Counted from the first letter of the stretch, positions 10,715 to 25,854 are shown. The stretch is 64,000 nucleotides of DNA from Bdellovibrionales bacterium (GCA_031370005.1 JANMPT010000110.1:64001-128000), one strand, 5' to 3'. Numbers and translations are program-made. Notes: generated by a model from the letters alone, not told the origin.

Positions 10715-11077
10715 CTAAGAGAGCTCGCTCATATTCAATTGTTCAATGCCATCAGAAATGACATTCGCAGGGATCTTTTCTTGTTCAAGGCGCTTTTCAC
10801 CATTCTTGATAAGATGATAAAGCTTAAGTTCAGCCGGTGACAATGCTGTTGGATCGTTGATTCGCTCCGAGGGCTTTCCATTTGTTCCGGTCCAATGAGT
10901 GTTCAAAATCTTTTCAGACATTAAAAACATTTCTGTGTGTGGAAATTGCTCCCGCATAAGCGACAAAATTTCAAGCCCATGTGCATCGATATCACCCCAA
11001 TAAACCACGCGACCACGATCTAAAAATCGGTGGCGATCCAGTGAGCCAACCAAAAAGCCGGAGCCAAAAATAATCAC
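10715..11077 (-). pseudogene. jetD: C-terminal fragment of Wadjet JetD (DUF2220, Toprim)
   Basis: YWGDIDAHGLEIL and RLEQE motifs; N-terminal two-thirds and jetABC are absent. Confidence 0.75.
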
Positions 11078-11140
11078 AGTTTTAGGGAGGCTGAAAAGGG
11101 GCTAAGTAGTGGATTTTAGGTCATTTTATAGCTGGGTATT

Positions 11141-12399
11141 CAGACCTGACCGGAAGATTCCCAATAATTTCATGACGTAAAACCGGCAGCAGGACTGGGG
11201 TTCCAACGACATCCGGGCGGTGCCCCGCTGTCTGCAAGGATTCTGTGATTTAGATCGGTTCGGATTGACCGCAGCAGCTGCCAGAGGGTCCCCTCAAAAC
11301 GATCCAGGATTTTCTTAAGCTGTAAAAGCAACTGAACCAGAACTGCGACGGCCAGTTGGGTCTTGATCGAGTTTGGTGTTTTTGTTGGCAGCCGACGGAT
11401 GTTCAGGTGTCCCTTCAACCAGCGGAACAATAATTCCACCGCCCACCTTCGTTTGTAAATTCCTGCAATCATTTTTGCACTGGACTTGAAGTCGGATGTT
11501 ATAAAATGAAAAATCTTTTTTGTAAGTGGATCTCTATAAATCACGTGCCGGAGCTCCTCTGGTTTTTCTTTGAACGGAGTGTAGGGGCCGTCATACAAAA
11601 ATCCATCTTTATCTTTCTGAACCTGCAGTACTTTCATCAACATCATGCGAAGTCTGGGGTGATCTTTCAGGCGAGTGACAAAGTGGGATCTTGCACTCAT
11701 AATTTTTTGCCAAAAATTAAAGTCATTATAAGCCCGGTCAAAGACGTAGGTCTTTCCCGGTAATAGCCGCAGATCAAGGCTTACCGGGGAATCGTTTCTT
11801 CTTCCCGGCGTGACTATAAAATCATCAATCCACTCACCATCAACGTTCCAAACAACGTGAAGTTTTGCCGAGGCCTGATGCTCATCTTTACAATGTTTTT
11901 GCCTCCACCCCGGCTCATTAAAGAGACTCCCATGGACTTTGATTTCCGTAGAATCGATAGCCATAATTTGCCGGATTGCTTTTTTAATTTTTCGACACTC
12001 AGTCTTGGCTCTGATTTCTAACAAAATCATGTCGCACAGTTCCTGGAAAAACCCAAATGCTCTTTCTCGAAGTGCATCACCAAAAGTTGAGTCTGGGATT
12101 TTAAGGGTAGCTTCGACTTCGCGAAAAGATTCGATTCTCATCACAAAACAGCAAATCAAAGCCTGGGTCATTTCCCAGGTTGAAAAGCTTTGGACCCACT
12201 TATCCATGTCCCACTTTTTTACCAGCGCGTTGAATTTTTTTTGATCAATCAATTGAAATAGAGAACGCCCTTTGAGAGAATTCTTCACGGTTGCCGCCTT
12301 CCTTAGCGTTTTAATTTTTTCTTCGCAGATAAATCAAAACAGCTAGGTGAAGGTCTGGCAACTTCTTGTTTTTACTTCAAAATCTTCCGGTCAGGTCTG
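11141..12399 (-). mobile_element. Intact IS4-family insertion sequence, 1259 bp
   Basis: Perfect 19-bp TIRs CAGACCTGACCGGAAGATT (11141-11159 and 12381-12399); 9-bp TSD CTGGGTATT (11132-11140 and 12400-12408). Confidence 0.95.
11170..12288 (-). CDS. IS4-family DDE transposase
   Basis: AIDST, VFDRAY, YKRRWAVELLFRWLK (YREK-like motif). Confidence 0.95.
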   Translation of the reverse strand: MKNSLKGRSLFQLIDQKKFNALVKKWDMDKWVQSFSTWEMTQALICCFVMRIESFREVEATLKIPDSTFGDALRERAFGFFQELCDMILLEIRAKTECRKIKKAIRQIMAIDSTEIKVHGSLFNEPGWRQKHCKDEHQASAKLHVVWNVDGEWIDDFIVTPGRRNDSPVSLDLRLLPGKTYVFDRAYNDFNFWQKIMSARSHFVTRLKDHPRLRMMLMKVLQVQKDKDGFLYDGPYTPFKEKPEELRHVIYRDPLTKKIFHFITSDFKSSAKMIAGIYKRRWAVELLFRWLKGHLNIRRLPTKTPNSIKTQLAVAVLVQLLLQLKKILDRFEGTLWQLLRSIRTDLNHRILADSGAPPGCRWNPSPAAGFTS

Positions 12400-12406
12400 C
12401 TGGGTA

Positions 12407-12435
12407 TTGACAATACGACATATATGTCGTATAAC
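12407..12435 (+). promoter_or_regulatory. Sigma-70 promoter with overlapping 20-bp palindromic operator
   Basis: TTGACA-17-TATAAC; ATACGACATATATGTCGTAT at 12413-12432; ATG at 12443 suggests a leaderless transcript. Confidence 0.75.
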
Positions 12436-12442
12436 GAAAGAG

Positions 12443-12745
12443 ATGAAATTTAAAGATTTTCAGGGACGTGAGATTATTTTATCAGAAGAGTCTTGGGGTC
12501 ATATTCAAGACTCTCACCCGGAGGTCTCTGTCGAGGAAATCGCGAAAGTTTTGGCGGAGCCAGATGAAGTGCGCAAAAGTAATCATTCCGCAAACGTGGA
12601 GCTGTATTATGTATTTAAGACTCCGGTTCCAAAGCTACGTTACCGCTGTGTAGTTGTTAAAGTTCTTCAATAGGCGTGTTTTGTTTCTTCAGCGATGACC
12701 ACAAGTAGTATGAAAAACGGTGTGATTTTATACAGAAAATCTTAG
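12443..12745 (+). pseudogene. Putative toxin (PBECR/DUF4258-like RNase) with internal amber stop
   Basis: IILSEESWGHIQDSHPE...VLAEPDEVRKS; in-frame TAG at 12671, after which the frame continues ACFVSSAMTT...YRKS to a TAG next to the antitoxin start. Confidence 0.6.
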
Positions 12746-12747
12746 AG

Positions 12748-13143
12748 GTGTTTATGAATATCACGTATGACAAAGATATAGATTATATGGAGATCTTTTT
12801 TAGTAAGGAAGAAAACTATGGGGATGAGTTAAATGATACTTGTATGGTTTTTAAGTCTGAAAAGACTGATGTGATTATAGGCTATGCTTTTGAGAACGCA
12901 AGCCAAAGCGTTTTTGAGGCCGAGTTTTTACATTTAACTACGAAGCTTGCGGCTATGCTAAAGATGGTCCGGGCTCTTGAAAATCTGACTCAAGAAGAAG
13001 CTGCAAAGAGGATTGGGGATATTACTCTCCGTCATTATCAGCGTTTAGAGGCAGGCGAGGATACGACCTTAGAAACGCTTGAACGAATTACCTTAGCGTT
13101 TCCAGGGCAGGACTTTTCAAAGATGTTTAAGAGGACTGCATAG
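12748..13143 (+). CDS. DUF2283 plus XRE-HTH putative antitoxin
   Basis: ITYDKDIDYMEIFF N-terminus; LTQEEAAKRIGDITLRHYQRLEAG HTH. Confidence 0.75.
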   Translation: MFMNITYDKDIDYMEIFFSKEENYGDELNDTCMVFKSEKTDVIIGYAFENASQSVFEAEFLHLTTKLAAMLKMVRALENLTQEEAAKRIGDITLRHYQRLEAGEDTTLETLERITLAFPGQDFSKMFKRTA

Positions 13144-13358
13144 TAAAGAACCTGCAGCTATTCACAAAATCGCTCAGAAATTCGGTAAGCGCGGACTTGA
13201 ACTTGCGAGCCTCATCCAAGTTCTCGCAGGCAATAAGTTTCGTAAGGCAAATTAAGTAACCAACCACCTTATCCCGCCCCTAAAATGAAAAAGCCCTGAT
13301 TTTAATTCAGGGCTTAGATGATTATTCTATATCTCGAAAACCAGTGTTAAAAAAATGG

Positions 13359-13622
13359 CTAGTTAGCGTGTGTAGAAAAAGATCTGGAGCTTTTAGGAAA
13401 GGCATGAAGCAATCCAATGATTGCAAAAATATTAATAAGCGCAATGATAAGTAAGCTCTGAGTGTCAACGGCGAGTTTTATGGTCAATAAGATTACATTT
13501 ATATACAAATACGCACGTGAAAGCAGAAGACCAAATTTCACAAAAATGTTTTGTCCAAATGGCAAAAACCATGCGCAAAGTAACACCACTCCGCAAACGC
13601 CAATTAAAAGCAGCGAGCCCAA
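13359..13622 (-). CDS. Small membrane protein
   Basis: Three hydrophobic segments; start uncertain. Confidence 0.45.
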   Translation of the reverse strand: MGSLLLIGVCGVVLLCAWFLPFGQNIFVKFGLLLSRAYLYINVILLTIKLAVDTQSLLIIALINIFAIIGLLHAFPKSSRSFSTHAN

Positions 13623-13695
13623 GGATACCCAGTACGCGTCCTCTTACTCTCAGAATCAGTAAGAATTACTCCATTAAAGGTTTCTCTTAGTTTTT

Positions 13696-14061
13696 TCAAT
13701 TGAGTTTCTCGGCGAGGAAAACTTCCTTGGGCGCGAACCCAGTCGTACCACTTATGATACCGTTCGTGGTTGCGATGGCGCATTGCGCACAGGTTTGAGG
13801 GGCTTTTGTAGGGGGATCAATCTTGGTTTTTTTCCGAAGACGATAGCGGCGCTGGGCCTGTTTGTGATTCTCAGAACCACACTGCGTATTACGGTATGTC
13901 TTTTGGTTTCGGCGATGTCGTTCCTTCCGAGCTTCGTCGGAGCATCCGTCTGAACAATACTTTTGATTCCGCCAACAAGAACGGCAAATCAATAAAATCT
14001 TCGAACAGCGAGGACATTGAACTTCAATGGCAGGCATAGCCTCGGCATTTAATAATTCCAT
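13696..14061 (-). CDS. Cys-rich zinc-binding protein of the type found as IS21-family passenger
   Basis: CPRC...CRSCWRNQKYCSDGC followed by a basic helix. Confidence 0.55.
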   Translation of the reverse strand: MELLNAEAMPAIEVQCPRCSKILLICRSCWRNQKYCSDGCSDEARKERHRRNQKTYRNTQCGSENHKQAQRRYRLRKKTKIDPPTKAPQTCAQCAIATTNGIISGTTGFAPKEVFLAEKLN

Positions 14062-14085
14062 ACAATAATGCTAAAAAAATTTCCC

Positions 14086-14170
14086 TGGTCCCTCAAACAC
14101 CGGCATTAATAACTGGACAATGGGACCGGGAAAACGCCCGAAGTGGTCCCTCTCGAAACCGGTGCGTGCA
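14086..14170 (-). mobile_element. Orphan IS21-like element end
   Basis: Terminus TGCACGCACCGG on the minus strand; repeated TGGTCCCTC-N4/5-ACCGG motifs at 14086 and 14144; no istA/istB present. Confidence 0.4.
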
Positions 14171-14379
14171 GGTCAATTGAAAAATCAGGTTTGACGGTCA
14201 ATGAGATTGTTAAGAAATCTCAAATAGCTAGATCCAAAGTTTCGGCAATTAAAAACGGAGCCTTGTCAGGAATTTCAAGTGATCTCTTTTTTAAAGTTAT
14301 TTCGGCTTGCGGATGGAAAGTAGTTATTAATTTAAAAAAAGATTCGGTAAAAGCGAAAAAAATTAACCAGCCGAAATAA
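14171..14379 (+). pseudogene. 5'-truncated XRE HTH gene
   Basis: IEKSGLTVNEIVKKSQIARSKVSAIKNG HTH begins exactly at the putative IS end. Confidence 0.5.
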
Positions 14380-14388
14380 TAAAACTTA

Positions 14389-15516
14389 CTATTTACTTGG
14401 TTTCTTTTTAACAACTAGGGCATCAAACGCTTTTTTATTTTTAAAGAATTTGTATTTCCCGGCCCGCTCTTCTATAAGAATTCCCATCAAGGCAAGGGCT
14501 CTTAAGTATTTCGCACATGTTTGCCAATGAATACCAAGGTCGCGCTCCATAAATTTTGCATGAGTTATGGGATGAAGAAAAATATGATCTAGAACTGAAG
14601 AGATGTTGTTTTTACGAATCGGATTTTCTGTCAGGTTAAATAACTGCGTTTTAATTTCCTTCTTAGCATTTTTAAGTTGATAGATTCCGATTTGTGTTTT
14701 GTAGGCCTGTACCGCGAATCCTTGAAGCATGAATTCAATAAATGGCCACCATTCTCCTTTTGTAGTGACGTTGAGAAGAAGTGATTTATAAAGATCTTCA
14801 TGGTCGCTTAAGTAGCTGCTTATAAATAGTGCCGGATAATCTAGTAGATTTTCATGCAGAAGTTGAGCAATCATTAGGATGCGACCGCAGCGTCCATTGC
14901 CGTCTTCGAATGGATGGATAGCTTCAAATTGATAATGGCAAATAGCTACTTTAATGAGAGGAAAAAAAGTTTTATCGTTGAGGATAAATTTTTCCCAATT
15001 GCTAACTAGATCTTCAGTTTTTGTCCACTCTGGAGGGGTATAAATGACTTCGAAAGTGCCATCTTTTCTTTTATTTCCAATTTGATTCTGTACTTTCCTA
15101 AATTCGCCGGGGTTTCCTTTGTCGACATTTAATTTCAAATGAATTGCTTTTATGGTTCGAGAAGACAAGCCATATTTTTTCAAAGATACAGTGCCTTCAA
15201 GTAAAGCTTCTCTGTATTTCATCACTTCTTTATTTTCTTTAGTTCGTTCGTCGACAGGTTTTGTTTCGTCCACCAGTGCAGATATGATAGTAGTATGTAT
15301 GTTTTCGACGGCATTGCTGCTAATTGATTCATTCAAATAGAATGTTGAGAGAAATAATTGCGGACGTTCAATGTCGTCTAAGGCACCCGCTAATTTAGAA
15401 ATCGCCTGTAGTGCATCATTGTGAAGATTCATGAGTTTCAAAAGATCGGGGTGATCTGAAATAGAGAAGGGGGGTGGAAGGTATTTTAGATCGTATGGTG
15501 AGTTTGCGCGAAACAT
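14389..15516 (-). CDS. Fic family protein with N-terminal Fic_N region and C-terminal HTH
   Basis: HYQFEAIHPFEDGNGRCGR; ESISSNAVENI inhibitory-type motif. Confidence 0.9.
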   Translation of the reverse strand: MFRANSPYDLKYLPPPFSISDHPDLLKLMNLHNDALQAISKLAGALDDIERPQLFLSTFYLNESISSNAVENIHTTIISALVDETKPVDERTKENKEVMKYREALLEGTVSLKKYGLSSRTIKAIHLKLNVDKGNPGEFRKVQNQIGNKRKDGTFEVIYTPPEWTKTEDLVSNWEKFILNDKTFFPLIKVAICHYQFEAIHPFEDGNGRCGRILMIAQLLHENLLDYPALFISSYLSDHEDLYKSLLLNVTTKGEWWPFIEFMLQGFAVQAYKTQIGIYQLKNAKKEIKTQLFNLTENPIRKNNISSVLDHIFLHPITHAKFMERDLGIHWQTCAKYLRALALMGILIEERAGKYKFFKNKKAFDALVVKKKPSK

Positions 15517-15726
15517 ATCGAAAATCCTCGGGCTTATTTATATGTTCGCATGATATATCGTAAAATTCAATATTTTTCGATATATTGGAAATACATATCG
15601 AAAATAATCGATTTACACGTAAGATATTGATTTTAATAGTCATATTTGGCAATGAAAAACTATAAACCAACGGAAATCTCAATATGGAACAAATAATATC
15701 ATCGACATTTTGAAAGATACAGTAAG

Positions 15727-15993
15727 TTGTCACAGAAGGCGCTGGCGGCGCTCTTGAAAACCAGCCAGCAGCAGATTCAGCGTTGGGAAAAAGGACAGGC
15801 TGTAAACCTGCAATGGGCGGTAGTACTCGCTCGTGTTCTCGGTCAAAAGCCGGAAATCATTTTTCCTGCCTTCGAGAAGGTGAAATCCACTGTAGCGAAG
15901 ACGCGTACATCTAAAATGGATCCCGAGAAAATTGAAAGTGAACTACATAAAGCCGGATTTGAGACAGATGCCCCGACGTATTGGTATCGATAG
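15727..15993 (+). CDS. XRE HTH protein, possibly a fragment
   Basis: SQKALAALLKTSQQQIQRWEKG. Confidence 0.55.
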   Translation: MSQKALAALLKTSQQQIQRWEKGQAVNLQWAVVLARVLGQKPEIIFPAFEKVKSTVAKTRTSKMDPEKIESELHKAGFETDAPTYWYR

Positions 15994-16543
15994 GTTGGTC
16001 GCAACTCAGTCGGGGTTTAAGAACGGCTGTTTGGTTGATACCAATGTTTTAATATCTACAAGTTTGCCAATTGATCCAATGAATGAAGCCGCTGAGAGGC
16101 TTGTTGATAAACTCGCACATTTAAAGATTCCGTTATATTCAAATGTTAATATCCGCGCTGAATTTCTTGAGATACAGCGACGGCTTTTAATTCCAGAAGC
16201 ACTCATCGAGTTCTACGAAAGCCACGGCGACCTTGATGATGTTTTAACGGGAAAACTTCGTTCAATTCAGTCCAGTTATCGAAAATCTATAGATAATAAA
16301 AAGATCTATAAATTCACCGATGATCGAATAAAAGAATTCAGAACCTTGATGTCGAGTTATGAATTCAATGGCAAAAACGGCTGGCTTTTTTTCTGCGCGA
16401 AGTTCTTAGCACCACAGCTTGATATTGTCTGGGACGAAGTCGTACAGATCTGCAATCTCAATTTCATAAAGATTCGCGATGGTGACATTCAACATATGTC
16501 CGATTCGCTTCGAGCACAGGGTAAATTCGTGCTGGAGATATAG
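15932..16543 (+). CDS. PIN-domain protein, probably truncated
   Basis: CLVDTNVLI PIN motif; start and end look rearranged. Confidence 0.6.
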   Translation: MKVNYIKPDLRQMPRRIGIDRLVATQSGFKNGCLVDTNVLISTSLPIDPMNEAAERLVDKLAHLKIPLYSNVNIRAEFLEIQRRLLIPEALIEFYESHGDLDDVLTGKLRSIQSSYRKSIDNKKIYKFTDDRIKEFRTLMSSYEFNGKNGWLFFCAKFLAPQLDIVWDEVVQICNLNFIKIRDGDIQHMSDSLRAQGKFVLEI

Positions 16544-16667
16544 TAATGAGGCATTTTAAAGAAGTAGCAGAGAGTTGCTTGGAGATGGTTTATGATTACA
16601 AGTGATAGACAGTTAAAAGTCACAAAAGAGAAGATTGAAAATTTTAAAGCCTCTCTTAAACAAAAGC

Positions 16668-17744
16668 CTAATGAGAAAATGAATCCTGTCTTGAAAAAAG
16701 CAGCACGAGTTCAAGCTTTAGACGAATTCGGTAAACATGTTCATTTATTGAAAACTCGCTGAATGGAAATCCGTCACCAAACATACTAACTTTGGGTTCA
16801 AACAAGCCAGGCTTTCCACCATCCTTATAAAGTAACACATCTCGATCTTTTACTTTGCCTCTATTTAGTGAGTTATGAAATTCCTCCGGGACATATTTTG
16901 TTTTAGAAAAATCAAAAAAACCTATTCTTACAATACTCTCGGCTCCAATATTGGGGATTCCATGAGTATATCCCGAAACGCCACCTTTAGGTCTATTGCC
17001 TGTTTCCAAAGCCGCAAGTAAATTTTCTAATTTTTCGTACTTCCATCCCTTCGGAATCAGCCCAAGTTCAGATTTTTCAAAGCTATCAGGAAAAAGTGCG
17101 GTGGTTTCATCATCCATCCCAAAAGGCTTTTTGCCTTCGGCTTTTGCTTTCACTGGTCCAAAATCGATGAACCATTCTTTAAAAATAGCTTTCGCCATTG
17201 ATTCAAGTGAATTGTTCATTTGGCTATTAAGCTCAATCTTGTCATTTAAAGATTTTGAGAGTTCGCCTATGAATTGTTGTTTCTCATCTGGAGGGCATGG
17301 GATCAGTAATTTATTTAGTACTTCGGTATCTAGTTTGCCAGCGCCAATTCCTGTAAATTCTACTTTTTCTAACAATTGTCTTTCGGAAGCAATAAGCCAT
17401 GCTAAAAAAAAGTCCGGTTGAATTTCTTTTGTCTTTAGCCTAAGTGCTTTTACATCTTGATTGATTGTAACATGTCTAGTTGGAACGGAGATTGGTATTC
17501 TCTGATGTAAAATGCTACCTCGAACAAGGAGCAGCGGAGTCCCTTTCTCAATAAATTTAATGCCAGACTCGGCGAGTGCCTTTTTGGTAATCTGTTCGGT
17601 AGATGAGCTGACATAAAGTTTATCCATTGAGCTTGCGCTGATCCAGGGTATGTCACCATCCCAAAAAGTCAACTCAGCTTTGGAAGGTGTTTTTCCTGAG
17701 ATCATCTGCACGGCGTCGCCAAATCGAATTGATTTAAAGCTCAT
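16668..17744 (-). pseudogene. hsdS: Type I R-M specificity subunit, C-terminally truncated
   Basis: TRD1, central conserved region (SLNDKIELNSQMNNSLESMAKAIFKEWF), then TRD2 breaks off with no distal conserved region. Confidence 0.75.
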
Positions 17745-19383
17745 TCAATTTCTCCATGATGTTTTTCTGCAAAATGGCTGACACACTAAATTGGTTCTCC
17801 AATTTGACTTTTAGTGTATTAAATCGCTCATCAAATGGTGTCTCATCGTCAATCACGTCCTCTGCGCCAACATATCTCCTAGGAGTCAGAACCCAACCAT
17901 TCTTTTCTATTTCATCAATTTTTACAGCTTTACAGAAACCGGCCTTGTCTTCATAAGTGCCAGCCTCTTTTTCTCCGCGCCAAGAATGATAGAGACGGCT
18001 AACTTCCTTAATTTCCTCATCAGTAAGCTCCTTGCTTACTCTTGAAGTCATCGCTCCTAATTTTCGGCAGTCGATGAAAAGAACTTCTCCAGCGCGATCC
18101 CGGATTCCAGTTTGTTTTTTGTTACGAGTCAGAAACCAAAGACTAGCCGGAATCTGAGTTGTATAAAAAAGCTGCCCCGGAAGCGAAACGATGCAATCAA
18201 CAAGATTAGCTTCAACTAAGGCCTTGCGAATTTCACCCTCGTTTGATTGGTTCGAGCTTAGTGACCCATTGGCCAAAACTATTCCAGCAATTCCATTTGG
18301 AGAAAGGTGGTGGATCATGTGCTGAAGCCAAGCGTAGTTAGCATTCCCTGGCGAAGGAGTTCCATATTTCCAGCGAACGTCGTCTTTTATCCGCTCAGCC
18401 CCCCAGTCGCTAACATTAAAAGGTGGGTTTGCGAGGATGTAGTCGGCTTTTAGATCTTTATGTTGATCGTTATGAAATGTATCACCATTGGTTTCCCCTA
18501 GATTTCCATCAAGACCACGAATCGCAAGATTCATCTTAGCTAGTTTCCAAGTCGTAGGATTTGATTCCTGACCATATACAGAAAGTGCGCCACGTTTACC
18601 GCCGTGGGCCTCCAGAAATTTCTCAGACTGAACAAACATTCCACCGGAACCGCAACAAGGATCGTAGATACGTCCCTTTGTTGGTTCGATCATTTCAACC
18701 AGCAACTTAACGATACAACCGGGAGTATAGAACTGTCCGCCAAGCTTACCTTCAGCAGAAGCAAATTTTCCAAGAAAGTATTCATAGACTCGTCCGAGGA
18801 CGTCTTTTTCTTTATTGGCTTTATCACCTAAGCCAATGCCTGAAATTAAATCCACAAGCTGTCCAAGCATCATTTTATCGAGATCAGGTCGGGCATAGTC
18901 TTTTTGCAGAACTCCCTTAAGGGTTTTGTTCTCTTTTTCAATAGCAACCATGGCATCATCAATGAGCTTTCCGATTTCAGGCTTCTTTGCGCTGTTTTTA
19001 ATGAAATCCCATCGGGCTTGTTTTGGAACCCAGAAAATATTCTCTGCAACATATTCGTCGCGGTCTTCGGCAGCTTGCGGGTCTTCCTTGATCAGTGAGT
19101 TGTATTTCTCTTCAAAAGAGTCAGAAATGTATTTGAGGAACACAAGCCCGAGCACTGTGTGTTTGTAGACTGCAGCGTCCATATGGCCACGAAGTTTATC
19201 GGCGGCAGCCCACAACGTCTCTTCAAATCCAAGGCTGACGGTTTGCTTGGTCTTCTGGGTCTTAGGTGCTTTTGGCTCGGACTGAGCCTGAAGCTCAAGT
19301 TGATTTTTAATCTTTGAAGATTGCTTCCGCTTTTTTTTCAGAATCGTTTTAGCCGCTTTTCCAGGTGTTTTTTTCTTTGCCAT
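17734..19383 (-). CDS. hsdM: Type I R-M N6-adenine methyltransferase subunit
   Basis: [21 protein letters not shown]; start uncertain (track start 19434). Confidence 0.93.
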
Positions 19384-19577
19384 AAGTGTAGGTATTACTG
19401 TTCGATGACCCTGAAATTCTATGGCTTTTAGCACTTTAAAACAAATTCAAACCGCACTCAATTTACATCTAAATTCATGGCGGAGCAGGTGGCACGCTGA
19501 GTTGTGCCTCTAATATGGGCAGATTGAGGCGAGCCTCCACTTTTTGATATTACCTAACGTATTTACCCGAAGGAATA

Positions 19578-19655
19578 GCTCTTAGGAGTTTACTGGTTTA
19601 GACGTATTGCCTTCTAAGCAACTGGTCGAAGGTTCAAATTCCCTTGGGAGTACTA
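19578..19655 (+). pseudogene. Degenerate tRNA-Arg(TCT)-like sequence
   Basis: Anticodon arm TTGC-CTTCTAA-GCAA, GGTTCAAAT T-loop, acceptor GCTCTTA/TGGGAGT with several G-T pairs; ends ACTA instead of ACCA; T-stem damaged. Confidence 0.6.
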
Positions 19656-19670
19656 ATTTCTGCGCAGATA

Positions 19671-19931
19671 CTACAATCCATCTAAAAGCTTCGACAAGGG
19701 CATTTTATAGAGCTTCGCTACTTTGCGGAGAGTGATAACCGTGATGTTTTTGCCGGATTCAATCTTTTGGAGGTGGGTCCAGTCGCCCCAGCCGTGTTCT
19801 TCGACCTCTTCCAATGTCCATCCCTTATCAGTACGTAAAGAGCGGATCCTAGTTCCTAGTTTAACCAAGAAGTTTTTATCATCAGGAGTAATACTGCTTG
19901 TTGCCATATAAAAATGATTGCAAATATGCAC
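19671..19931 (-). CDS. XRE-family HTH regulator
   Basis: LGTRIRSLRTDKGWTLEEV...LQKIESGKNITVITL. Confidence 0.85.
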   Translation of the reverse strand: MHICNHFYMATSSITPDDKNFLVKLGTRIRSLRTDKGWTLEEVEEHGWGDWTHLQKIESGKNITVITLRKVAKLYKMPLSKLLDGL

Positions 19932-19982
19932 GATAATAAGTAAGAATGATCGTGCATAATATGAAATGGGAAATATTAAATT

Positions 19983-20225
19983 ATGAAGTCAGGCAAGAGT
20001 AAGATCCAGCTACAGACAAAGTCTCCCACCGGTCGTAAAGAATCGCACGACTTGGTCCAGAGTCGCCTTTTAGATCTTCATTTTGAGCTGAGCGCTTATG
20101 GGTTCCTTTTTTCGAACTTAAAGAACTGTGAGCTTTGCGAGGATGATCTGTATGGAATGGGAGTTGTCTTCAATAAAATGGCAAAACGGGTGTCGAAGAT
20201 TTCAGAGGAAATCTCCTTAAGCTAA
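19983..20225 (+). CDS. Hypothetical protein, divergent from the HTH gene
   Basis: 80-aa ORF, no recognised motif. Confidence 0.5.
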   Translation: MKSGKSKIQLQTKSPTGRKESHDLVQSRLLDLHFELSAYGFLFSNLKNCELCEDDLYGMGVVFNKMAKRVSKISEEISLS

Positions 20226-20395
20226 TCCTGAGAGGCCAGCTGGAATAGCGTCCTGCTATTCACACAAAACAGCGATGGCAAAATCATAAGCTCCGTCACT
20301 TACGGCGTGCTGAGTAAATCATAAAGTTTTTTGTAGTTACTGTCCTTTTAAAGGTTTATTCGGGTGCCGATCCGTCAATTGCAGGTGACTATATT

Positions 20396-21364
20396 TCAAG
20401 GCAACTGTCTTGCAGTGGTGCGATTAAATTTATCCTTCAAACACTCTGGACACCAGCGACATTTTCGGATCAAAGCAACAGGGGCATTCCATTGATGCCC
20501 TTGAGCGCACTGAAATTTTGCAATTTTAAGATGATAATTTGGTCCTTCATAAATTTCTGAAAGACATTTGCCGCCCATCCGTTTTGCCAATTCATAAGTT
20601 GCCAGAATCGACTTTCTCATTTTTCCACAGGTCGGGCACCACTTCCCCCTACGAACATTGTGCAAGGCGGCTTTAAAACTATGCCCAAATTTGCATTCCA
20701 AAGAGTATTTCTCACCGGACCCGAGAATATGACCGGTCAGTAATTTCCCTCCGTGACCGCGCACCAACTCCTGCAATTCGTTTAAAGCCAACTCCTCATT
20801 GCAGGCCCGGCACCAAGTCTTGCTCCGAAGCAATGCCTTCAAATGCGACTGCCAGGTATGCCCATTTCTGCAAGCAGCCACAGCCTGATGTCTTTCGCCT
20901 TCAACTCTATTGACGACTCCGCTATGGGAGGAAGCAACGGCTTTAACCTTCTGAAATAGGAGGTTTGCCATTTTATTACTGTATTCATTTCGGCTGCATT
21001 TTCGACACCAATTTCCCTGTTGAACGCTGTTCGGTGATGCAAAAAAATGATGCTTGTTCCGACATTCCCATTCTAGCTTTTCACCACTGGTCAGAGAAAT
21101 TTTCGATACCAGCCGACCACCATTTATTTTGGCCATTTTTTGCATTTTTTCAATGCCATCACGTTTTTGCAGTCCGGCTTCTTTCATGGAGCACTTGCAA
21201 CACCACTGTCCGTTCTGAATGTGATGCCAGGCAGTCGACCACCGATGTCCTTTTTGACATTGCCATCGCAGGTGCTGTCGTGCATTGACGTAAGTCACAG
21301 AAAGGCACCGACCGCCCTTTTCGCGTGCCTTCTCTTTGCAGTCTTTGATCGTGTAGGTTTTCAT
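20396..21364 (-). CDS. Zinc-ribbon repeat protein (5 repeats)
   Basis: Five units of about 60 aa: GGxxL...CxxGHxW/F...WCxxC. Confidence 0.8.
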   Translation of the reverse strand: MKTYTIKDCKEKAREKGGRCLSVTYVNARQHLRWQCQKGHRWSTAWHHIQNGQWCCKCSMKEAGLQKRDGIEKMQKMAKINGGRLVSKISLTSGEKLEWECRNKHHFFASPNSVQQGNWCRKCSRNEYSNKMANLLFQKVKAVASSHSGVVNRVEGERHQAVAACRNGHTWQSHLKALLRSKTWCRACNEELALNELQELVRGHGGKLLTGHILGSGEKYSLECKFGHSFKAALHNVRRGKWCPTCGKMRKSILATYELAKRMGGKCLSEIYEGPNYHLKIAKFQCAQGHQWNAPVALIRKCRWCPECLKDKFNRTTARQLP

Positions 21365-21618
21365 TGCCTCTATTACAAATAAATATAATTTAAAACTCTA
21401 GAAAATTTAGTTTAAAACTGATGTTCTTTTCTTTGGTCTAGGGGGTTGACGGGGTGGACCAGGGAAAGGCCGAGGCTTTTTTGATCCTTAAGATCCGGTC
21501 TCGGATCAATGAGCAGAAAATAAGACTCAAGGTCGTCATAGAGTTCAAAAAGCACGAGCGAAGCGAAAAGTACCCTTGGGGCTTTGAGGTTGTCGAGCTG
21601 TCAGATGTTGTTATCTAA

Positions 21619-21972
21619 CTATAGTTTAAGTGAAAGGTGTCTTGCGAGAGCCTCATCGACTAATCGCATGTGCTCATCGGGCAATTTTCCAATTCTTTTC
21701 TGGAGTCGCTTTTTGTCGAAAGTTCTAACTTGGTGGACTTTGACCTTGCTGTTTTTTAGACCGGCAATGCCGTCGACGGAAACTTCATGGGGATATATTT
21801 TTTCCAGCTTTTGTGACGTAATTGGCACCACGCTAACTAGTGGTGAGAAGGTGTTAGCCACGTCATTTGAGACAATCACGCAGGGTCGCGTTTTTTGGAT
21901 TTCCGCACCAATGGTGGGGTCGAAGTTTGCCCAAAAGATATCGCCTCTTTTAATATTCGTCGTCAAGGCCAT
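21619..21972 (-). CDS. mazF: MazF/PemK toxin
   Basis: KRGDIFWANFDPTIGAEIQKTRPCVIVSND; start is ATG 21972 or TTG 21966. Confidence 0.92.
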   Translation of the reverse strand: MALTTNIKRGDIFWANFDPTIGAEIQKTRPCVIVSNDVANTFSPLVSVVPITSQKLEKIYPHEVSVDGIAGLKNSKVKVHQVRTFDKKRLQKRIGKLPDEHMRLVDEALARHLSLKL

Positions 21973-22195
21973 CTCCAATAGTAGAATCAAGCTCGGCAGC
22001 AAGTTCGCTATCTTCCTTTGCCGTGGCCTTATAGCCTTCGATCATTTCTTGAATCAATGTGTTCTGAGACTTTCCAGCAAAGTACAGTTCCAGTGCCTCC
22101 GCAATCACGGCGGATCTTTCGCGTGGTTTAACCGACTTTCTCAGTTTCTTTGCAACCTTCTCCGGAAGGGAAATATTCATTCTAATTGCACCCAT
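21950..22195 (-). CDS. Ribbon-helix-helix antitoxin (EndoAI/MazE-like)
   Basis: RMNISLPE...RSAVIAEAL...MIEGY; overlaps mazF; GAGGTG RBS. Confidence 0.88.
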   Translation of the reverse strand: MGAIRMNISLPEKVAKKLRKSVKPRERSAVIAEALELYFAGKSQNTLIQEMIEGYKATAKEDSELAAELDSTIGDGLDDEY

Positions 22196-22671: not shown

Positions 22672-24360
22672 CTATAGTTTTAAAAATTTATCATTTTGTG
22701 AAAGAGTCAGGATCGTGTTGGATTCAACAAGCGAAAGATCAAAACCTTCAATCTTATCTTTTAAGATGGCCACTATATACTGACCGTCAACTCCATTTGC
22801 AATTTCAAACATTGTCTTCAGCTGGTTTACATGAATTTCTTCGAGCTTATCATGAAGTGCAAAACGAATAGTATTAGCAGCGAACTTGCTCAAGAATTCT
22901 AGGTAGGCCAAGTCGAACGCAGTTGTTTGTCCCTTCTTTTTTCCAGAACCAACATTCCCTTTTACGTTGTTAATTTTAAACCTATAAAAAGATCCGGCTT
23001 TTCCTTCGTGATCTTCAAATGACAAGACATACTGCTCGTCGTAGAGTTTTCTCGAAATCTCCGCAAAAATCAGATTGAATGCAGTTATTTTCTTTTCGAG
23101 GTCGGCTTCAAAGTCGGCAATTTGATCGTTAATTTGTGCAAGGTTGGAATTAATATCCTTAATGTTTTGAGTTAGCTCCTCTAGAGTTTTGATGAGAGAG
23201 AGCTTCTTGCCCTTTTCCTCGTGAAGAAGATTTAACTCTTTGTCTATTTTCTGAAGATCAGCCAGTGCCCCCTTGTGAGACAAACCTTTGAGCACTTCCT
23301 TCTCTTCGCCAATGTATTTATTCAGCTGCTTATCTCTTTGCTGGATTTCCGATTCAGTTGAAGATATGGATTTCTGAATAAAGCTAATTTTATTAGAGAT
23401 CATTGATTCGTGGAACTTGAGAACTTCCTCGAAAGATTTCTGTAGCTTGGGAATAGAAGATTTAGCTTCTTCATATAACGATTTTATAGTTTCAGGATTA
23501 ATGTTTCCACGAGATTTGCTCAGCTGTTCAATAGTTTGTAAATTTAGATTATATTTGATCCTCAATTTACTAATAGCAATCGACAATTCTGAAATATGCT
23601 TTCTCAATGATTCAAGCGCTTTAATTTCATTAGTTATGCTGTCTGTAAGTTCAAATTTTTCTTTCTTTCGCTCTTGCTCAGTAATGTTAGTGTCGATTAC
23701 AGCAAGCATCTGCTTGAGTGCCTCGTGCGAAAAGTCCTTTAATGCTAATTTTTGGATTGAAAGTCTTTTTCTGTCTCTTGTAAGAACGCTCTTCTGGGTT
23801 AAAAGATCCTGATCTTGAAAACCAAATAAATATAGGTAAACCGCTTCATATACGTCTTCAGGATTACTAGGATGCAAGAACTTGAGTGTATTACTCATTT
23901 CATGGTTATCGATCCGAATGAATTTTTTAATCAATTGCCTATATGATGGCTTACCTGTTTTTAAACCAAGTAAAATTCTTCCTAAATTAGATTTGAAATC
24001 TTCAAGATCAAGTCCAAACTCCTCACCGTTTATAGTAGGTTTCCGATCAAGGCCTCGCGTAATTACGTATTCGGTGCCTTTAACAGATTTTACAGTAAGT
24101 TTGAATTCAACACTATAGTTCTTAAGATAGTTATAAACCTGTTCATTCTTTGTCTTAAACTCAGGATCTGTGAAAATAGCGGTGCCGTCTGATCCCAGGC
24201 AGAAATCAATGGCTCTCAAAAACGTTGTTTTTCCGATGTCATTACCGGACTCAGTAGAGCGATTGGTTGTTACATCAAATACGAGATTCAATCCCTTTTT
24301 AAAGGTGATCTCTCTCACAACTCCGTTCTTATCTGATACAACGAGATTCTTTAAAAACAT
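22672..24360 (-). CDS. lmuB: Lamassu LmuB / ABC-three-component SMC-like ATPase (DUF2326 type)
   Basis: Walker A GNDIGKTT, long central coiled coil, signature variant GSGKK, Walker B FALHD; last gene of a coupled operon. Confidence 0.85.
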   Translation of the reverse strand: MFLKNLVVSDKNGVVREITFKKGLNLVFDVTTNRSTESGNDIGKTTFLRAIDFCLGSDGTAIFTDPEFKTKNEQVYNYLKNYSVEFKLTVKSVKGTEYVITRGLDRKPTINGEEFGLDLEDFKSNLGRILLGLKTGKPSYRQLIKKFIRIDNHEMSNTLKFLHPSNPEDVYEAVYLYLFGFQDQDLLTQKSVLTRDRKRLSIQKLALKDFSHEALKQMLAVIDTNITEQERKKEKFELTDSITNEIKALESLRKHISELSIAISKLRIKYNLNLQTIEQLSKSRGNINPETIKSLYEEAKSSIPKLQKSFEEVLKFHESMISNKISFIQKSISSTESEIQQRDKQLNKYIGEEKEVLKGLSHKGALADLQKIDKELNLLHEEKGKKLSLIKTLEELTQNIKDINSNLAQINDQIADFEADLEKKITAFNLIFAEISRKLYDEQYVLSFEDHEGKAGSFYRFKINNVKGNVGSGKKKGQTTAFDLAYLEFLSKFAANTIRFALHDKLEEIHVNQLKTMFEIANGVDGQYIVAILKDKIEGFDLSLVESNTILTLSQNDKFLKL

Positions 24361-24605
24361 TTAATAATGTCACCCTTTTCGTCTAAGTTTATCTTGCCCA
24401 GCAAAAACAACCAGTCGAGTGTAAGCATAAAGTAATCATATGAAACCTTTGCGCCTGCCTCCACAGTGCCGTCATTTACAGCTCTGAAAAGTACATTGGG
24501 ATCAACCACGCCAAAATTTGACTCCATCAAAGCATGTATAACTTTTGCACCTAAGAAGTAGAGGCTTTTTGTCGGCTCATTATCTTGATCTATCAAAAGC
24601 GTCAT
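24351..24605 (-). CDS. lmuC: Lamassu LmuC / ABC-three-component middle component
   Basis: 84 aa, PTKSLYFLGA...FMLTLDWLFLLG; overlaps both neighbours. Confidence 0.8.
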   Translation of the reverse strand: MTLLIDQDNEPTKSLYFLGAKVIHALMESNFGVVDPNVLFRAVNDGTVEAGAKVSYDYFMLTLDWLFLLGKINLDEKGDIIKCF

Positions 24606-25195
24606 TTGGCTGGCCTCTCCAAAATCTTGCAGTTGATAAAAGCATGGCAGGTCATCGCAATTGATGAAAAATCCAAGTCTTCCTGACTAATACTCACCGA
24701 ATTAGAATTCGACAGATCTTTTTTTACTTCGTTTGCAACTCTCTCAATAATAGTGTCAGCATTTTGGCGAATTATGTCTAGGGGTGTAGTCGTTGAAGAT
24801 TGGCTCTTAAGGACATCACCCTTTATTCGGTCATATCGAGCTTTAAAATTTCGTAGAACTTTAGAGCGTGCTCCAGGACGATGATTGTCTAACTCCTTGT
24901 AGGCTTCATCAATTGCAGCTCCATATTGACCATAATCTTCAATCCAGTGTTTATAGGCCTGCAGGTTATTGTGAGAAATTTTATCTTCGATCGTGTAGGG
25001 TTCATTCGTTTGAGGGACCTGATTAGACACATTTCCAGCGTCGATAATGTCATTCAGCTTAGGAATAAGATCAGCCAAAATACTTGGTAACTTACTAACA
25101 TTTTCCTGGGTTATCGTAATATCCCCACCCGCAGTGATATTATTATTTCCGCTAACTTTTTGCTTAATAGGTCCGGCAGGATTATTTTTTGCCAT
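24602..25195 (-). CDS. lmuA: LmuA-like ABC-3C C-terminal-domain protein; no enzymatic effector domain, N-terminal Gly/Asn motif
   Basis: ATG 25195 after a GGTGGAG RBS (197 aa); PYTIEDKISHNNL...HAFINCKILERP C-terminal domain; N-terminus QKVSGNNNITAGGDITITQ. Confidence 0.75.
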   Translation of the reverse strand: MAKNNPAGPIKQKVSGNNNITAGGDITITQENVSKLPSILADLIPKLNDIIDAGNVSNQVPQTNEPYTIEDKISHNNLQAYKHWIEDYGQYGAAIDEAYKELDNHRPGARSKVLRNFKARYDRIKGDVLKSQSSTTTPLDIIRQNADTIIERVANEVKKDLSNSNSVSISQEDLDFSSIAMTCHAFINCKILERPAK

Positions 25196-25358
25196 AATCT
25201 CCACCAACGGTGGTATTGCCGTCGCCTTTCACTTTTTGATTGGTTTTGTTAAAGCTGTTTTTTATGCTAAAAACTTGAGAGGCAACAACAAGTGAGACAA
25301 CCAGAGAAAGAATTGAGCAAATGCTTGCAGTCAAATTTATTGTTTCTAATGTTGTCAT
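25182..25358 (-). CDS. 58-aa single-pass membrane micro-protein with a C-terminal motif matching the LmuA N-terminus (not in ORF track)
   Basis: GGGGGAACC-ATG; MTTLETINLTASICSILSLVVSLVVASQVFSIKNSFNKTNQKVKGDGNTTVGGDYGKK*; 14-nt overlap with the lmuA start. Confidence 0.85.
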   Translation of the reverse strand: MTTLETINLTASICSILSLVVSLVVASQVFSIKNSFNKTNQKVKGDGNTTVGGDYGKK

Positions 25359-25405
25359 GGTTCCCCCAACGATCTAGTTATCTAAATCGATCCAATATTA
25401 TGGCC

Positions 25406-25675
25406 TCATATGTTTTCATTTAGTCTATTTGAAATTTTGAATAATGCATCATTTGCGAGTTTCTTTAGCCGCATCACTTCCAACTGATTCTCAAAATTTT
25501 TATCAATGTAATGGATCAACTCTAAAAAGTCGTGCGGATCGATGCTCAAGACACCTTTGTTGATCTCTGGGCTTGAAAATCTCATTGGACATTTTTTAAG
25601 GAATTTTTCGAGGGCGGAGGAGACGAAGGGTATTTGAGTGTCGCGAAGTTTGATTTTTATCTCTTTCACGATCAA
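25406..25675 (-). CDS. Hypothetical protein
   Basis: 89-aa ORF with AAGGA RBS, between tRNA-fMet and the Lamassu operon. Confidence 0.45.
   Translation of the reverse strand: MIVKEIKIKLRDTQIPFVSSALEKFLKKCPMRFSSPEINKGVLSIDPHDFLELIHYIDKNFENQLEVMRLKKLANDALFKISNRLNENI

Positions 25676-25777: not shown

Positions 25778-25854
<77 letters not shown>

Follow-up and report, generated by a model that had tools for sequence, protein, structure and literature searches.

Introduction

Amyloid signalling is established in fungi and has been described for bacterial NLR pairs, and Lamassu is well known. CTD10, MC6 and DUF2326 are the effector-component C-terminal domain (CTD), the middle component and the ABC ATPase, respectively, of ABC-three-component (ABC-3C) systems; ABC-3C and CTD10 were reportedly defined by Krishnan et al. 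in 2020. Here we describe a four-gene operon of this kind in a 64,000-nucleotide stretch of DNA from Bdellovibrionales bacterium (GCA_031370005.1 JANMPT010000110.1:64001-128000; below, the window, with positions counted from its first letter). An SMC-like ABC ATPase, an MC6 middle component and a short CTD10 protein are encoded there together with a putative membrane protein of only 58 residues (the micro-protein), and the C-terminus of the micro-protein and the N-terminus of the CTD10 protein carry matching Gly/Asn-rich motifs.

A review, in its treatment of these systems, puts ABC-3C within the Lamassu superfamily. The LmuA oligomerisation domain is reported to be held by two LmuB and one LmuC (bioRxiv 10.1101/2025.03.14.643221), and freed LmuA is reported to tetramerise via its CTD, gathering the N-terminal domains (bioRxiv 10.1101/2025.06.23.660979). 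For Bab/Agp of E. coli ECOR25, amyloid signalling has been reported in defence against phage T5: Bab and Agp share the BASS11 motif, and β-breaker mutations are said to abolish the effects of that motif (Ibarlosa et al., bioRxiv 10.1101/2024.11.07.622273). With that 2024 preprint, amyloid signalling in antiphage defence is no longer new in itself. The present locus differs in that matched motifs connect a small membrane protein to the CTD10 component of an operon with an SMC-like ATPase.

Operon layout and gene assignments

The four genes lie on the minus strand in the order micro-ORF (open reading frame, ORF), CTD10, MC6 and ATPase (Table 1), with successive overlaps of 14, 4 and 10 nucleotides (nt). 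This layout had been proposed in a sequence-only reading of the window, whose gene limits and motif residues were all confirmed, as was its claim that the 58-residue ORF has a ribosome-binding site of its own: GGGGGA stands 3-4 nt ahead of the ATG. The CTD10 gene has GGTGGAG directly 5′ of its start. A scan of the operon for promoters and terminators gave signals not above those of shuffles, and a search for RNA runs containing the stretch listed none.

The names CTD10 and MC6 are Pfam assignments. The CTD10 protein matches Pfam CTD10 (PF20275, E 2.6e-11) over residues 54-193, and its N-terminal part matches no family in Pfam, PADLOC or NCBIfam. In PADLOC the ATPase was the sole match among the operon proteins, with PDC-M68B as its best model (1.1e-43) and LmuB at 2e-20; there was no LmuA or LmuC match. 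Of the Lamassu gene names given in the sequence-only reading, that of an LmuB-like ATPase therefore stands, and LmuA and LmuC give way to CTD10 and MC6. Walker A residues G38, N39, G42, K43 and T45 of the ATPase, together with D503 and E506, are invariant or nearly so among 12 homologues. A sequence search of the Protein Data Bank (PDB) with the ATPase gave 0 matches at E up to 0.01, so that the solved LmuB was not reached by sequence.

The operon thus contains the SMC/Rad50-like ABC ATPase (LmuB) of an ABC-3C system, the small MC/LmuC gene between the effector and ATPase genes, and an effector-component protein that ends in a CTD domain. An effector domain fused N-terminally to the CTD is absent, the helical domain being preceded by 29 low-confidence residues. 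As judged from its protein families, the operon is an ABC-3C (type II Lamassu-like) system.

The micro-protein and the matched motifs

In its AlphaFold2 model the micro-protein consists of a helix (residues 3-39) followed by a tail (residues 41-58) with a predicted local distance difference test (pLDDT) score below 50. The maximum 19-residue Kyte-Doolittle mean is 2.23. No family in Pfam, NCBIfam or PADLOC matches the micro-protein above threshold. The sequence-only reading had described it as hidden; the protein itself stands up, and the description does not, since the exact 58-residue sequence occurs, unnamed, in a collection of 15 billion public proteins. Its relatives are annotated as 'hypothetical protein', and the matches in a protein atlas are unnamed clusters of 60-76 residues only.

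The motif of the micro-protein tail, QKVKGDGNTTVGGD (residues 41-54), and that of the CTD10 protein, QKVSGNNNITAGGD (residues 12-25), are identical at 9 of 14 residues, and four of the shared residues use differing codons (GTG/GTT, GGC/GGA, ACC/ACT and GGA/GGG), both as read earlier from the sequence. The local BLOSUM62 score of the pair is 50 over 21 columns. In 5000 composition-preserving shuffles of the last 45 residues of the micro-protein this score was never reached, nor was it in 5000 shuffles confined to the Gly/Asn-rich last 22 residues; composition alone is therefore no explanation of the likeness, and by these sequence comparisons the match in the window exceeds chance. The feature of amyloid signalling pairs, in which the same short motif stands at the C-terminus of an effector and at the N-terminus of the product of the adjacent gene, is present.

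In the AlphaFold2 models both motif regions are low-confidence coil beside confident helices. A complex prediction for CTD10 residues 1-60 with the micro-protein gave a score of 0.00; it was run without controls, and we use it neither for nor against an interaction.

Pairing of short CTD10 genes with an upstream small ORF

The locus set comprised 86 sources, namely 14 from species genomes, 71 from metagenomes (profile-guided scans) and the window. A CTD10 ORF was present in 84 of them: 6 are startless fragments, 5 are long forms of 269-326 residues and 73 are short forms. An upstream ORF of at most 150 residues, on the same strand and ending between -9 and +47 nt of the CTD10 start, accompanies 67 of the 73 short forms, and a truncated short copy (L081) likewise has an upstream small ORF. 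Four of the 73 lie within 138 nt of a contig end and are not assessable. The upstream small ORF is thus present, always as a separate ORF, at 68 of the 69 assessable short CTD10 genes. The overlap between the two ORFs is exactly 4 nt in 34 of the 67 loci. The absence of the micro-ORF from homologous operons had been named in the sequence-only reading as fatal to its case; homologous operons carry it almost without exception.

The lone exception is L013, where the upstream ORF has 443 residues and the CTD10 ORF (L013:3926-4591) is missing the N-terminal part found in the family; this may be a degraded system. The downstream genes are conserved as well. In related loci, MC6 was found in 10 of 10 small downstream ORFs tested and DUF2326 in 9 of 12 large ones. 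The gene order is kept in 17 of the 33 lineages defined below, these being the lineages in which both downstream ORFs are readable; the rest are cut by contig ends or unresolved.

Co-variation of the motifs between lineages

Dereplication at <70% identity in the CTD10 body gave 33 lineages, and matched pairing is, on the sequence comparisons that follow, a general trait of the short CTD10 family. Motif scores average 53.6 within cognate pairs and 28.9 when partners of different lineages are combined; in 17 of the 33 lineages the cognate partner outscores all the others. None of 10000 permutations reached the observed sum of cognate scores. When each tail was shuffled against its own partner, 24 of the 33 lineages had 0 of 1000 shuffles reaching the score, and the worst had 33 of 1000. 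The cut-offs for BASS pairs given in the preprint of Dyrka et al. (bioRxiv 10.1101/2020.01.06.895854) are a score of 40 and 15 columns, and 28 of the 33 lineage pairs reach both. The co-variation that the sequence-only reading had suggested looking for is therefore found.

The motifs themselves diverge strongly between lineages. Examples of upstream tail and CTD10 N-terminus are ISVNGDDNTVSGRDI and IDVNGNTNTIAGRDI, ITADNGGIAVDNSG and IKSDRGGLAYDGSG, TVVSTGRGSVTV and TVVSTGSGGVTV, and NNGAVMGDNHGTMNF and NTGAVLRDNLGVMNF. Aligned over 657 positions, the paired motifs agree in 51% of amino acids and in 57% of nucleotides. Of the 331 identical residues, 148 have one and the same codon in both partners, where codons drawn independently would give 141.7. 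Codon use this close to independence means that the likeness is kept at the protein level and does not stem from recent DNA duplication or gene conversion; selection at protein level had been suggested in the sequence-only reading from the codon differences in the window. The motifs are composed of N (18%), G (16%), I (11%), S (11%) and V (8%), with 0.8% P. In the short CTD10 forms, G and N together make up 26% of residues 2-31 and 10% of the remainder.

Predicted effector heads in the upstream slot

Strongly hydrophobic helices, one or two per protein, occur in the upstream protein of 29 of the 33 lineages. These proteins fall into two groups, one of 45-85 residues with one helix and one of about 77-134 residues in which two hydrophobic segments are seen by eye. 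In the remaining four lineages (L077, L079, L080 and L084) the upstream protein is not hydrophobic and is 107-113 residues long. All four of these proteins match Pfam HetE-N above cut-off (E 1.1e-13 to 1.7e-9), and their tails still match the N-terminus of their own CTD10 protein. The L077 protein matches PDB entry 9h9v, 'Babybass', over residues 1-77 (E 9e-7), and NCBIfam antiphage GapS6a at E 7.9e-16, which is below the cut-off of that model. Entry 9h9v evidently corresponds to the globular domain of Bab studied by Ibarlosa et al., and from the residue numbers quoted in the Bab/Agp preprint we infer that the GDNxG tail of this Bab-like clade is BASS11. A membrane-targeting cell-death head of the HeLo, Hell, Bell or Bab type, as is found in amyloid signalling pairs, is thus present in these four lineages and absent in the window.

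When the one-helix micro-proteins and the Bab-like proteins were compared profile to profile, the C-terminal motif alone matched (probability 74%, E 2.8e-5, 21 columns), which indicates that one motif type is carried by two unrelated effector heads. No N-terminal similarity was found in this comparison. Many of the one-helix micro-proteins (L016, L017, L020, L028, L032, L041 and others) start MD(W/I)(T/A)(L/M), so that an acidic residue stands second in the chain, ahead of the hydrophobic helix; the Bab-like proteins start MDFITSSILGG. An acidic position of this kind has been noted for the N-termini of Bell, HeLo and MLKL proteins (Dyrka et al., bioRxiv 10.1101/2020.01.06.895854). The shared MD-type starts may be convergence.

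A homologue search with the L077 protein gave 6 close relatives only, and a search of a phage collection with it gave no match. Weak relatives (33-35% identity) are encoded on two plasmids of Photobacterium damselae, NZ_CP146976.1 and NZ_CP076735.1.

The long CTD10 proteins (L005, L006, L011, L072 and L073) have a globular N-terminal domain fused to CTD10, and these five have neither a Gly/Asn-rich start nor a matched upstream micro-ORF. The domain is Cys/His-rich and HNH-like by eye, with no Pfam hit at E up to 0.001. Two further proteins, P0091 and P0152, are SMEK_N-CTD10 fusions. That the long forms have a globular domain and no micro-ORF suggests that the micro-protein takes the functional place of the fused effector.

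The CTD10 domain and its likeness to LmuA

The AlphaFold2 model of the CTD10 protein has residues 1-29 at pLDDT below 50, followed by an all-helical region (residues 30-187) with a mean pLDDT of 81. In an exhaustive comparison with 48161 PDB representatives, the closest fold was the LmuA CTD of 9hqx_A (Z 7.5, root-mean-square deviation (rmsd) 4.8 over 121 residues, chain residues 270-399), and the second was the LmuA CTD of 9nxx_A (Z 6.9, rmsd 4.0 over 115 residues, chain residues 256-383). The next match is unrelated, at Z 5.5. The weight of the comparison comes from the fact that both top matches are the expected domain of LmuA. Foldseek gave nothing at E up to 0.001 for this model; the best-ranked match was chain 9a6c_B of a YydD-YydB model, at probability 1.00 and E 0.055, and we take the YydB of 9a6c to be a Lamassu-type effector.

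In its predicted structure, the CTD10 domain therefore resembles the LmuA oligomerisation domain. This agrees with the sequence-only description of the protein as an LmuA without its effector, in that 29 low-confidence residues are all that precedes the domain, and it fits the step in that reading in which LmuA becomes clustered. We note that the partner in amyloid signalling pairs is an oligomerising sensor (NLR/STAND or TGP), and that such a partner is absent here: the CTD10 adaptor has no NTPase domain, and the sensor ATPase is a separate protein.

Proposed mechanism and alternatives

We propose that the operon is a four-gene abortive-infection system working by amyloid-like signalling, in which the effector is split in two, into a motif-bearing CTD10 adaptor and a 58-residue membrane killer. 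This is the reading that we favour, with moderate confidence. The CTD10 protein would retain an LmuA-type CTD together with a disordered tail of about 29 residues that bears the Gly/Asn-rich motif, and the killing part would be a separate, translationally coupled, single-pass membrane protein of 58 residues, whose cytoplasmic tail has the same motif. At rest, (a) the ABC ATPase and MC6 would sequester the CTD10 domain. When foreign DNA is sensed, (b) the adaptor would be freed and would oligomerise through CTD10, and (c) its clustered disordered N-terminal motifs would form a cross-β nucleus. Finally, (d) this nucleus would template the tail of the micro-protein, the membrane helices would cluster and the membrane would be permeabilised, so that the infected cell dies and the infection is aborted. 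For steps (a) and (b) we rely on homology with LmuACB; (c) and (d) are modelled on Bab/Agp and NWD2/HET-S, with the Bab homologues in the same slot as a further pointer.

Put more generally, short CTD10 proteins may be amyloid-nucleating adaptors, whose release by an SMC-family sensor would seed a prion-like fold that activates interchangeable executioners (one-helix proteins of 55-85 residues, two-helix proteins and Bab-like proteins); for this wider proposal we judge the chances to be even. The interpretation offered in the sequence-only reading is supported, in that it came through every computational test named there as able to refute it, with its amyloid and membrane steps still conditional.

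Several observations weigh against amyloid-like signalling or reduce the force of the evidence for it. On the tree of CTD10 bodies, motif types are mostly clade-specific, with 13 tail clusters and 13 changes; this corresponds to about a dozen independent events instead of 33, and relatedness is left uncorrected in the permutation test. The cognate score is equalled or exceeded by that of some non-cognate partner with the same motif type in 16 of the 33 lineages, and four pairs are weak (L001, 36; L018, 27; L032, 39; L068, 31). Neither the micro-protein nor the CTD10 protein matches RHIM, HET-s, Ses_B or NACHT_sigma in Pfam at E up to 0.1, and the effector in the window is a bare helix, without a domain of the Bell or HeLo type. 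For a helical domain the Z values to LmuA are middling, and values of this size may arise from a commonly occurring helix arrangement; oligomerisation of CTD10 would be an extrapolation from LmuA proteins with CTD7 and CTD12. Lastly, a matched β-motif would serve a stable, non-templated heterocomplex equally well.

The last point leads to the most serious alternative, namely that the two motifs pair constitutively as a stable hetero-β structure (a hairpin zipper or short β-helix), so that the membrane protein is always on the adaptor and activation proceeds as in an ordinary Lamassu system, through release and oligomerisation, without any fibril or prion-like templating. Matched, co-varying motifs fit this equally well, and sequence data cannot separate it from templating. 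The tight translational coupling seen in the frequent 4-nt overlaps favours equimolar co-assembly, and the tails have weak, sub-threshold matches of β-helix type (Gp5_C, E 0.03; DUF3060, E 0.002, in L002). Against such a tether, the slot in sister loci holds Bab homologues, and the Bab motif is reported to turn amyloid only on infection; both motif regions are disordered in the models of the monomers; and the composition (N, G and β-branched residues, almost no P) and the pair identity of about 50% are as in the amyloid signalling pairs that have been reported. We regard a constitutive tether as possible but rather unlikely.

A weaker alternative is that the sole role of the micro-protein is to bring the Lamassu complex or its adaptor to the inner membrane, for example where phage DNA enters, with the toxicity residing elsewhere. 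The protein in the window indeed has one hydrophobic helix only and no recognisable toxic domain; no other effector domain is encoded in the operon, and toxic activity was not identified by homology. However, a mere anchor would leave the operon free of any effector, although long CTD10 proteins have a globular N-terminal domain in that place. Moreover, the Bab-like cell-death domains in the same slot are soluble proteins and not anchors, and motifs of one kind are borne interchangeably by one-helix, two-helix and Bab-like heads, as would be expected if the heads were effectors. An anchoring role on its own is therefore improbable.

It is hardly credible that the micro-ORF and CTD10 are a single gene, split at the A6 run by an error of sequencing or assembly that shifts the frame, or read by programmed +1 frameshifting into a protein of transmembrane helix, repeat and CTD10 with two motifs: the ORFs do overlap by 14 nt around GGCAAAAAATAA, where loss of one A would fuse the frames, and the A6 run at this spot is covered by the possible source run alone (three other runs cover 150-220 nt pieces elsewhere), but two ORFs are found in all 67 related loci, in different frames in 64 and separated by a stop in 3, with ends from -9 to +47 nt and no common slippery site, the short proteins appear as separate entries in gene calls and public records, and an independent assembly of the run possibly behind the window DNA (a Logan contig) is identical over 24500-25500, with 0 differences and 0 gaps. 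A frameshift artefact or conserved recoding is thus ruled out as a general explanation by the frames across the 67 loci, in line with the sequence-only reading, which had listed it as a danger to its own case.

At one locus the frames are less tidy. The Oligoflexia metagenome-assembled contig L004 (1482-2228, coverage ~4.6) has a transmembrane micro-ORF with a GNKGINQTVKGNNNTQIGRQ tail, whereas the open frame of CTD10 (1704-2228) lacks a start codon ahead of the domain and the tblastn match begins inside the frame of the micro-ORF. A real frameshift or one of assembly is possible at this single locus.

Distribution and genomic setting

A CTD10 profile search of 1.84 billion representatives (clusters at 50% identity) gave 864 at E up to 0.001, 580 at 1e-10 and 152 at 1e-30. 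Among the best 150 representatives, 145 are 170-230 residues long, 2 are shorter fragments and 3 exceed 250 residues, two of these being the SMEK_N-CTD10 fusions. Named hosts include Myxococcus, Bdellovibrionales, Oligoflexia, Pseudomonas, Marinomonas, Oceanobacter, Kineobactrum and Sulfurospirillaceae. A 72-residue upstream protein, annotated as 'hypothetical' in Lachnospira eligens, occurs in at least 1000 contigs. The CTD10 protein was found in 0 of 40 genomes searched from relatives of the window organism; one homologue, P0002, has 75% identity.

One Bdellovibrionales contig of 3.04 Mb contains two whole systems of micro-ORF, CTD10, MC6 and ATPase, about 210 kb apart and in opposite orientation (L002, 1496161-1504694; L003, 1280566-1289099). 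Their micro-proteins and CTD10 N-termini are identical and the same large ORF precedes both, which suggests a duplicated mobile element.

In the window, the operon sits in a defence and mobile-element island (10715-22195) beside tRNA-Met (Table 1). The JetD_C fragment next to the transposase may be what is left of a Wadjet system cut by the transposase insertion. An ORF of 89 residues (25406-25675, minus strand) lies between the micro-ORF and the tRNA and has no Pfam family match.

Table 1. Genes and motifs of the four-gene operon, and its neighbours in the island, in window coordinates.
Feature	Position	Strand	Description
Micro-protein gene (58 residues plus stop)	25182..25358	-	ORF; predicted membrane effector: N-terminal hydrophobic helix and C-terminal Gly/Asn-rich tail
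CTD10 gene, effector-less LmuA-like adaptor (197 residues from ATG)	24602..25195	-	Predicted disordered N-terminal motif, then CTD10 helical domain
MC6 gene, middle component (84 residues), LmuC position	24351..24605	-	Pfam MC6 PF20293, E 7.5e-17
SMC-like ABC ATPase gene (562 residues), LmuB position	22672..24360	-	Predicted DNA sensor; Pfam DUF2326, E 7.5e-16
Effector-side motif Q41-D54, QKVKGDGNTTVGGD	25197..25238	-	Micro-protein tail
Adaptor-side motif Q12-D25, QKVSGNNNITAGGD	25121..25162	-	CTD10 protein N-terminus
tRNA-Met	25778-25854	-	Island neighbour
PemK/MazF toxin	21619-22002		Island; with an overlapping 81-residue upstream ORF
322-residue protein, DUF4379 treble-clef zinc-finger domain	20396-21364		Island
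Helix-turn-helix protein	19671-19931		Island
Type I restriction-modification HsdM	17734-19434		Island
Type I restriction-modification HsdS	16668-17744		Island
Fic protein	14389-15516		Island
DDE_Tnp_1 transposase	11170-12288		Island
120-residue JetD_C fragment	10715-11077		Island; adjoins transposase

Significance

Lamassu and ABC-3C systems are common, and for nuclease effectors it has recently been worked out how release and oligomerisation of the effector bring about activation. Short CTD10 proteins without an effector domain are now given a partner and a testable mechanism. If the proposal is correct, the operon would provide the first case of amyloid signalling triggered by an SMC/ABC sensor, and the micro-protein, a minimal membrane executioner of about 58 residues, would be the smallest amyloid-controlled executioner known. 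Amyloid signalling would then reach beyond NLR and TGP to sensors of the SMC type, and beyond filamentous bacteria to ordinary unicellular ones, in which it would be common; the family would also offer about a dozen natural orthogonal motif pairs for studying the specificity of templating. In the annotation of defence systems, small upstream ORFs should count as components.

The literature search found no paper that links amyloid signalling with Lamassu or ABC-3C, which agrees with the sequence-only reading, whose author knew of none; its coverage did not extend to Krishnan et al. 2020 and its supplements, which possibly bear on priority. Searches on CTD10 (scope, the papers listed), ABC-3C, BASS11 and HetE-N gave nothing on such a link, the Bab/Agp preprint being the only relevant paper for BASS11. 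ABC, Lamassu and transmembrane are not mentioned in the ASMscan paper, and the PADLOC 'embedded' preprint has no text on PDC-M68. Within that coverage, no publication was found that combines an SMC-like ABC sensor acting through a CTD adaptor with a motif and bare single-helix membrane peptides as effectors under motif control.

Comparison with known systems

The system shares with the type II Lamassu LmuACB, as described from Salmonella and Vibrio, an SMC-like ABC ATPase, a small middle component and a protein with a domain like the LmuA CTD. In the LmuACB accounts, however, LmuA has a fused Cap4 nuclease (with CTD7 or CTD12), whereas here CTD10 is preceded by a 29-residue tail only and the presumed effector is supplied by a fourth gene. 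The long CTD10 proteins of ABC-3C systems (the five long forms and the two SMEK_N fusions) have the same CTD10 and, where visible, the same MC6 and ATPase partners; unlike the adaptor in the window, they have a fused globular domain, either HNH-like by eye or SMEK_N, and neither a Gly/Asn-rich motif at the N-terminus nor a matching micro-ORF upstream.

The motif arrangement is that reported for the Bell/NLR pairs with BASS1-10 and for NWD2/HET-S, with the motif at the C-terminus of the effector and at the N-terminus of its partner (Dyrka et al., bioRxiv 10.1101/2020.01.06.895854). As described for the Bell/NLR pairs, the genes are adjacent, a 4-bp overlap is frequent and several effector heads are used on one motif logic, and the identity within pairs is about 43-56% in that preprint and 51% here. 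The partner in those pairs, by contrast, is a STAND NTPase (NB-ARC or NACHT) that itself bears the motif. Moreover, the Bell/NLR pairs are reported mainly from multicellular bacteria, whereas the CTD10 family is found in Pseudomonas, Marinomonas, Myxococcus, Bdellovibrionales, Sulfurospirillaceae and Lachnospira.

A further parallel is with Bab/Agp. There the partner is described as a 1094-residue sensor of TPR, GreA/B-C and PIN domains, whereas here it is a 197-residue CTD10 adaptor serving an ABC ATPase and MC6, and the main text of the Bab/Agp preprint has 0 occurrences each of ABC, Lamassu, SMC and CTD. Unlike Bab, the executioner in the window is a single helix of 58 residues with no Bell-like domain. 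In both systems, as far as Bab/Agp is described in that preprint, a small executioner with a C-terminal motif of amyloid type is followed by an adjacent, overlapping gene whose product starts with the same motif, the genes are located in a defence island, and abortive infection via membrane damage is proposed or shown (here proposed only). In the four sister lineages L077, L079, L080 and L084, the slot upstream of CTD10 is occupied by true Bab homologues.

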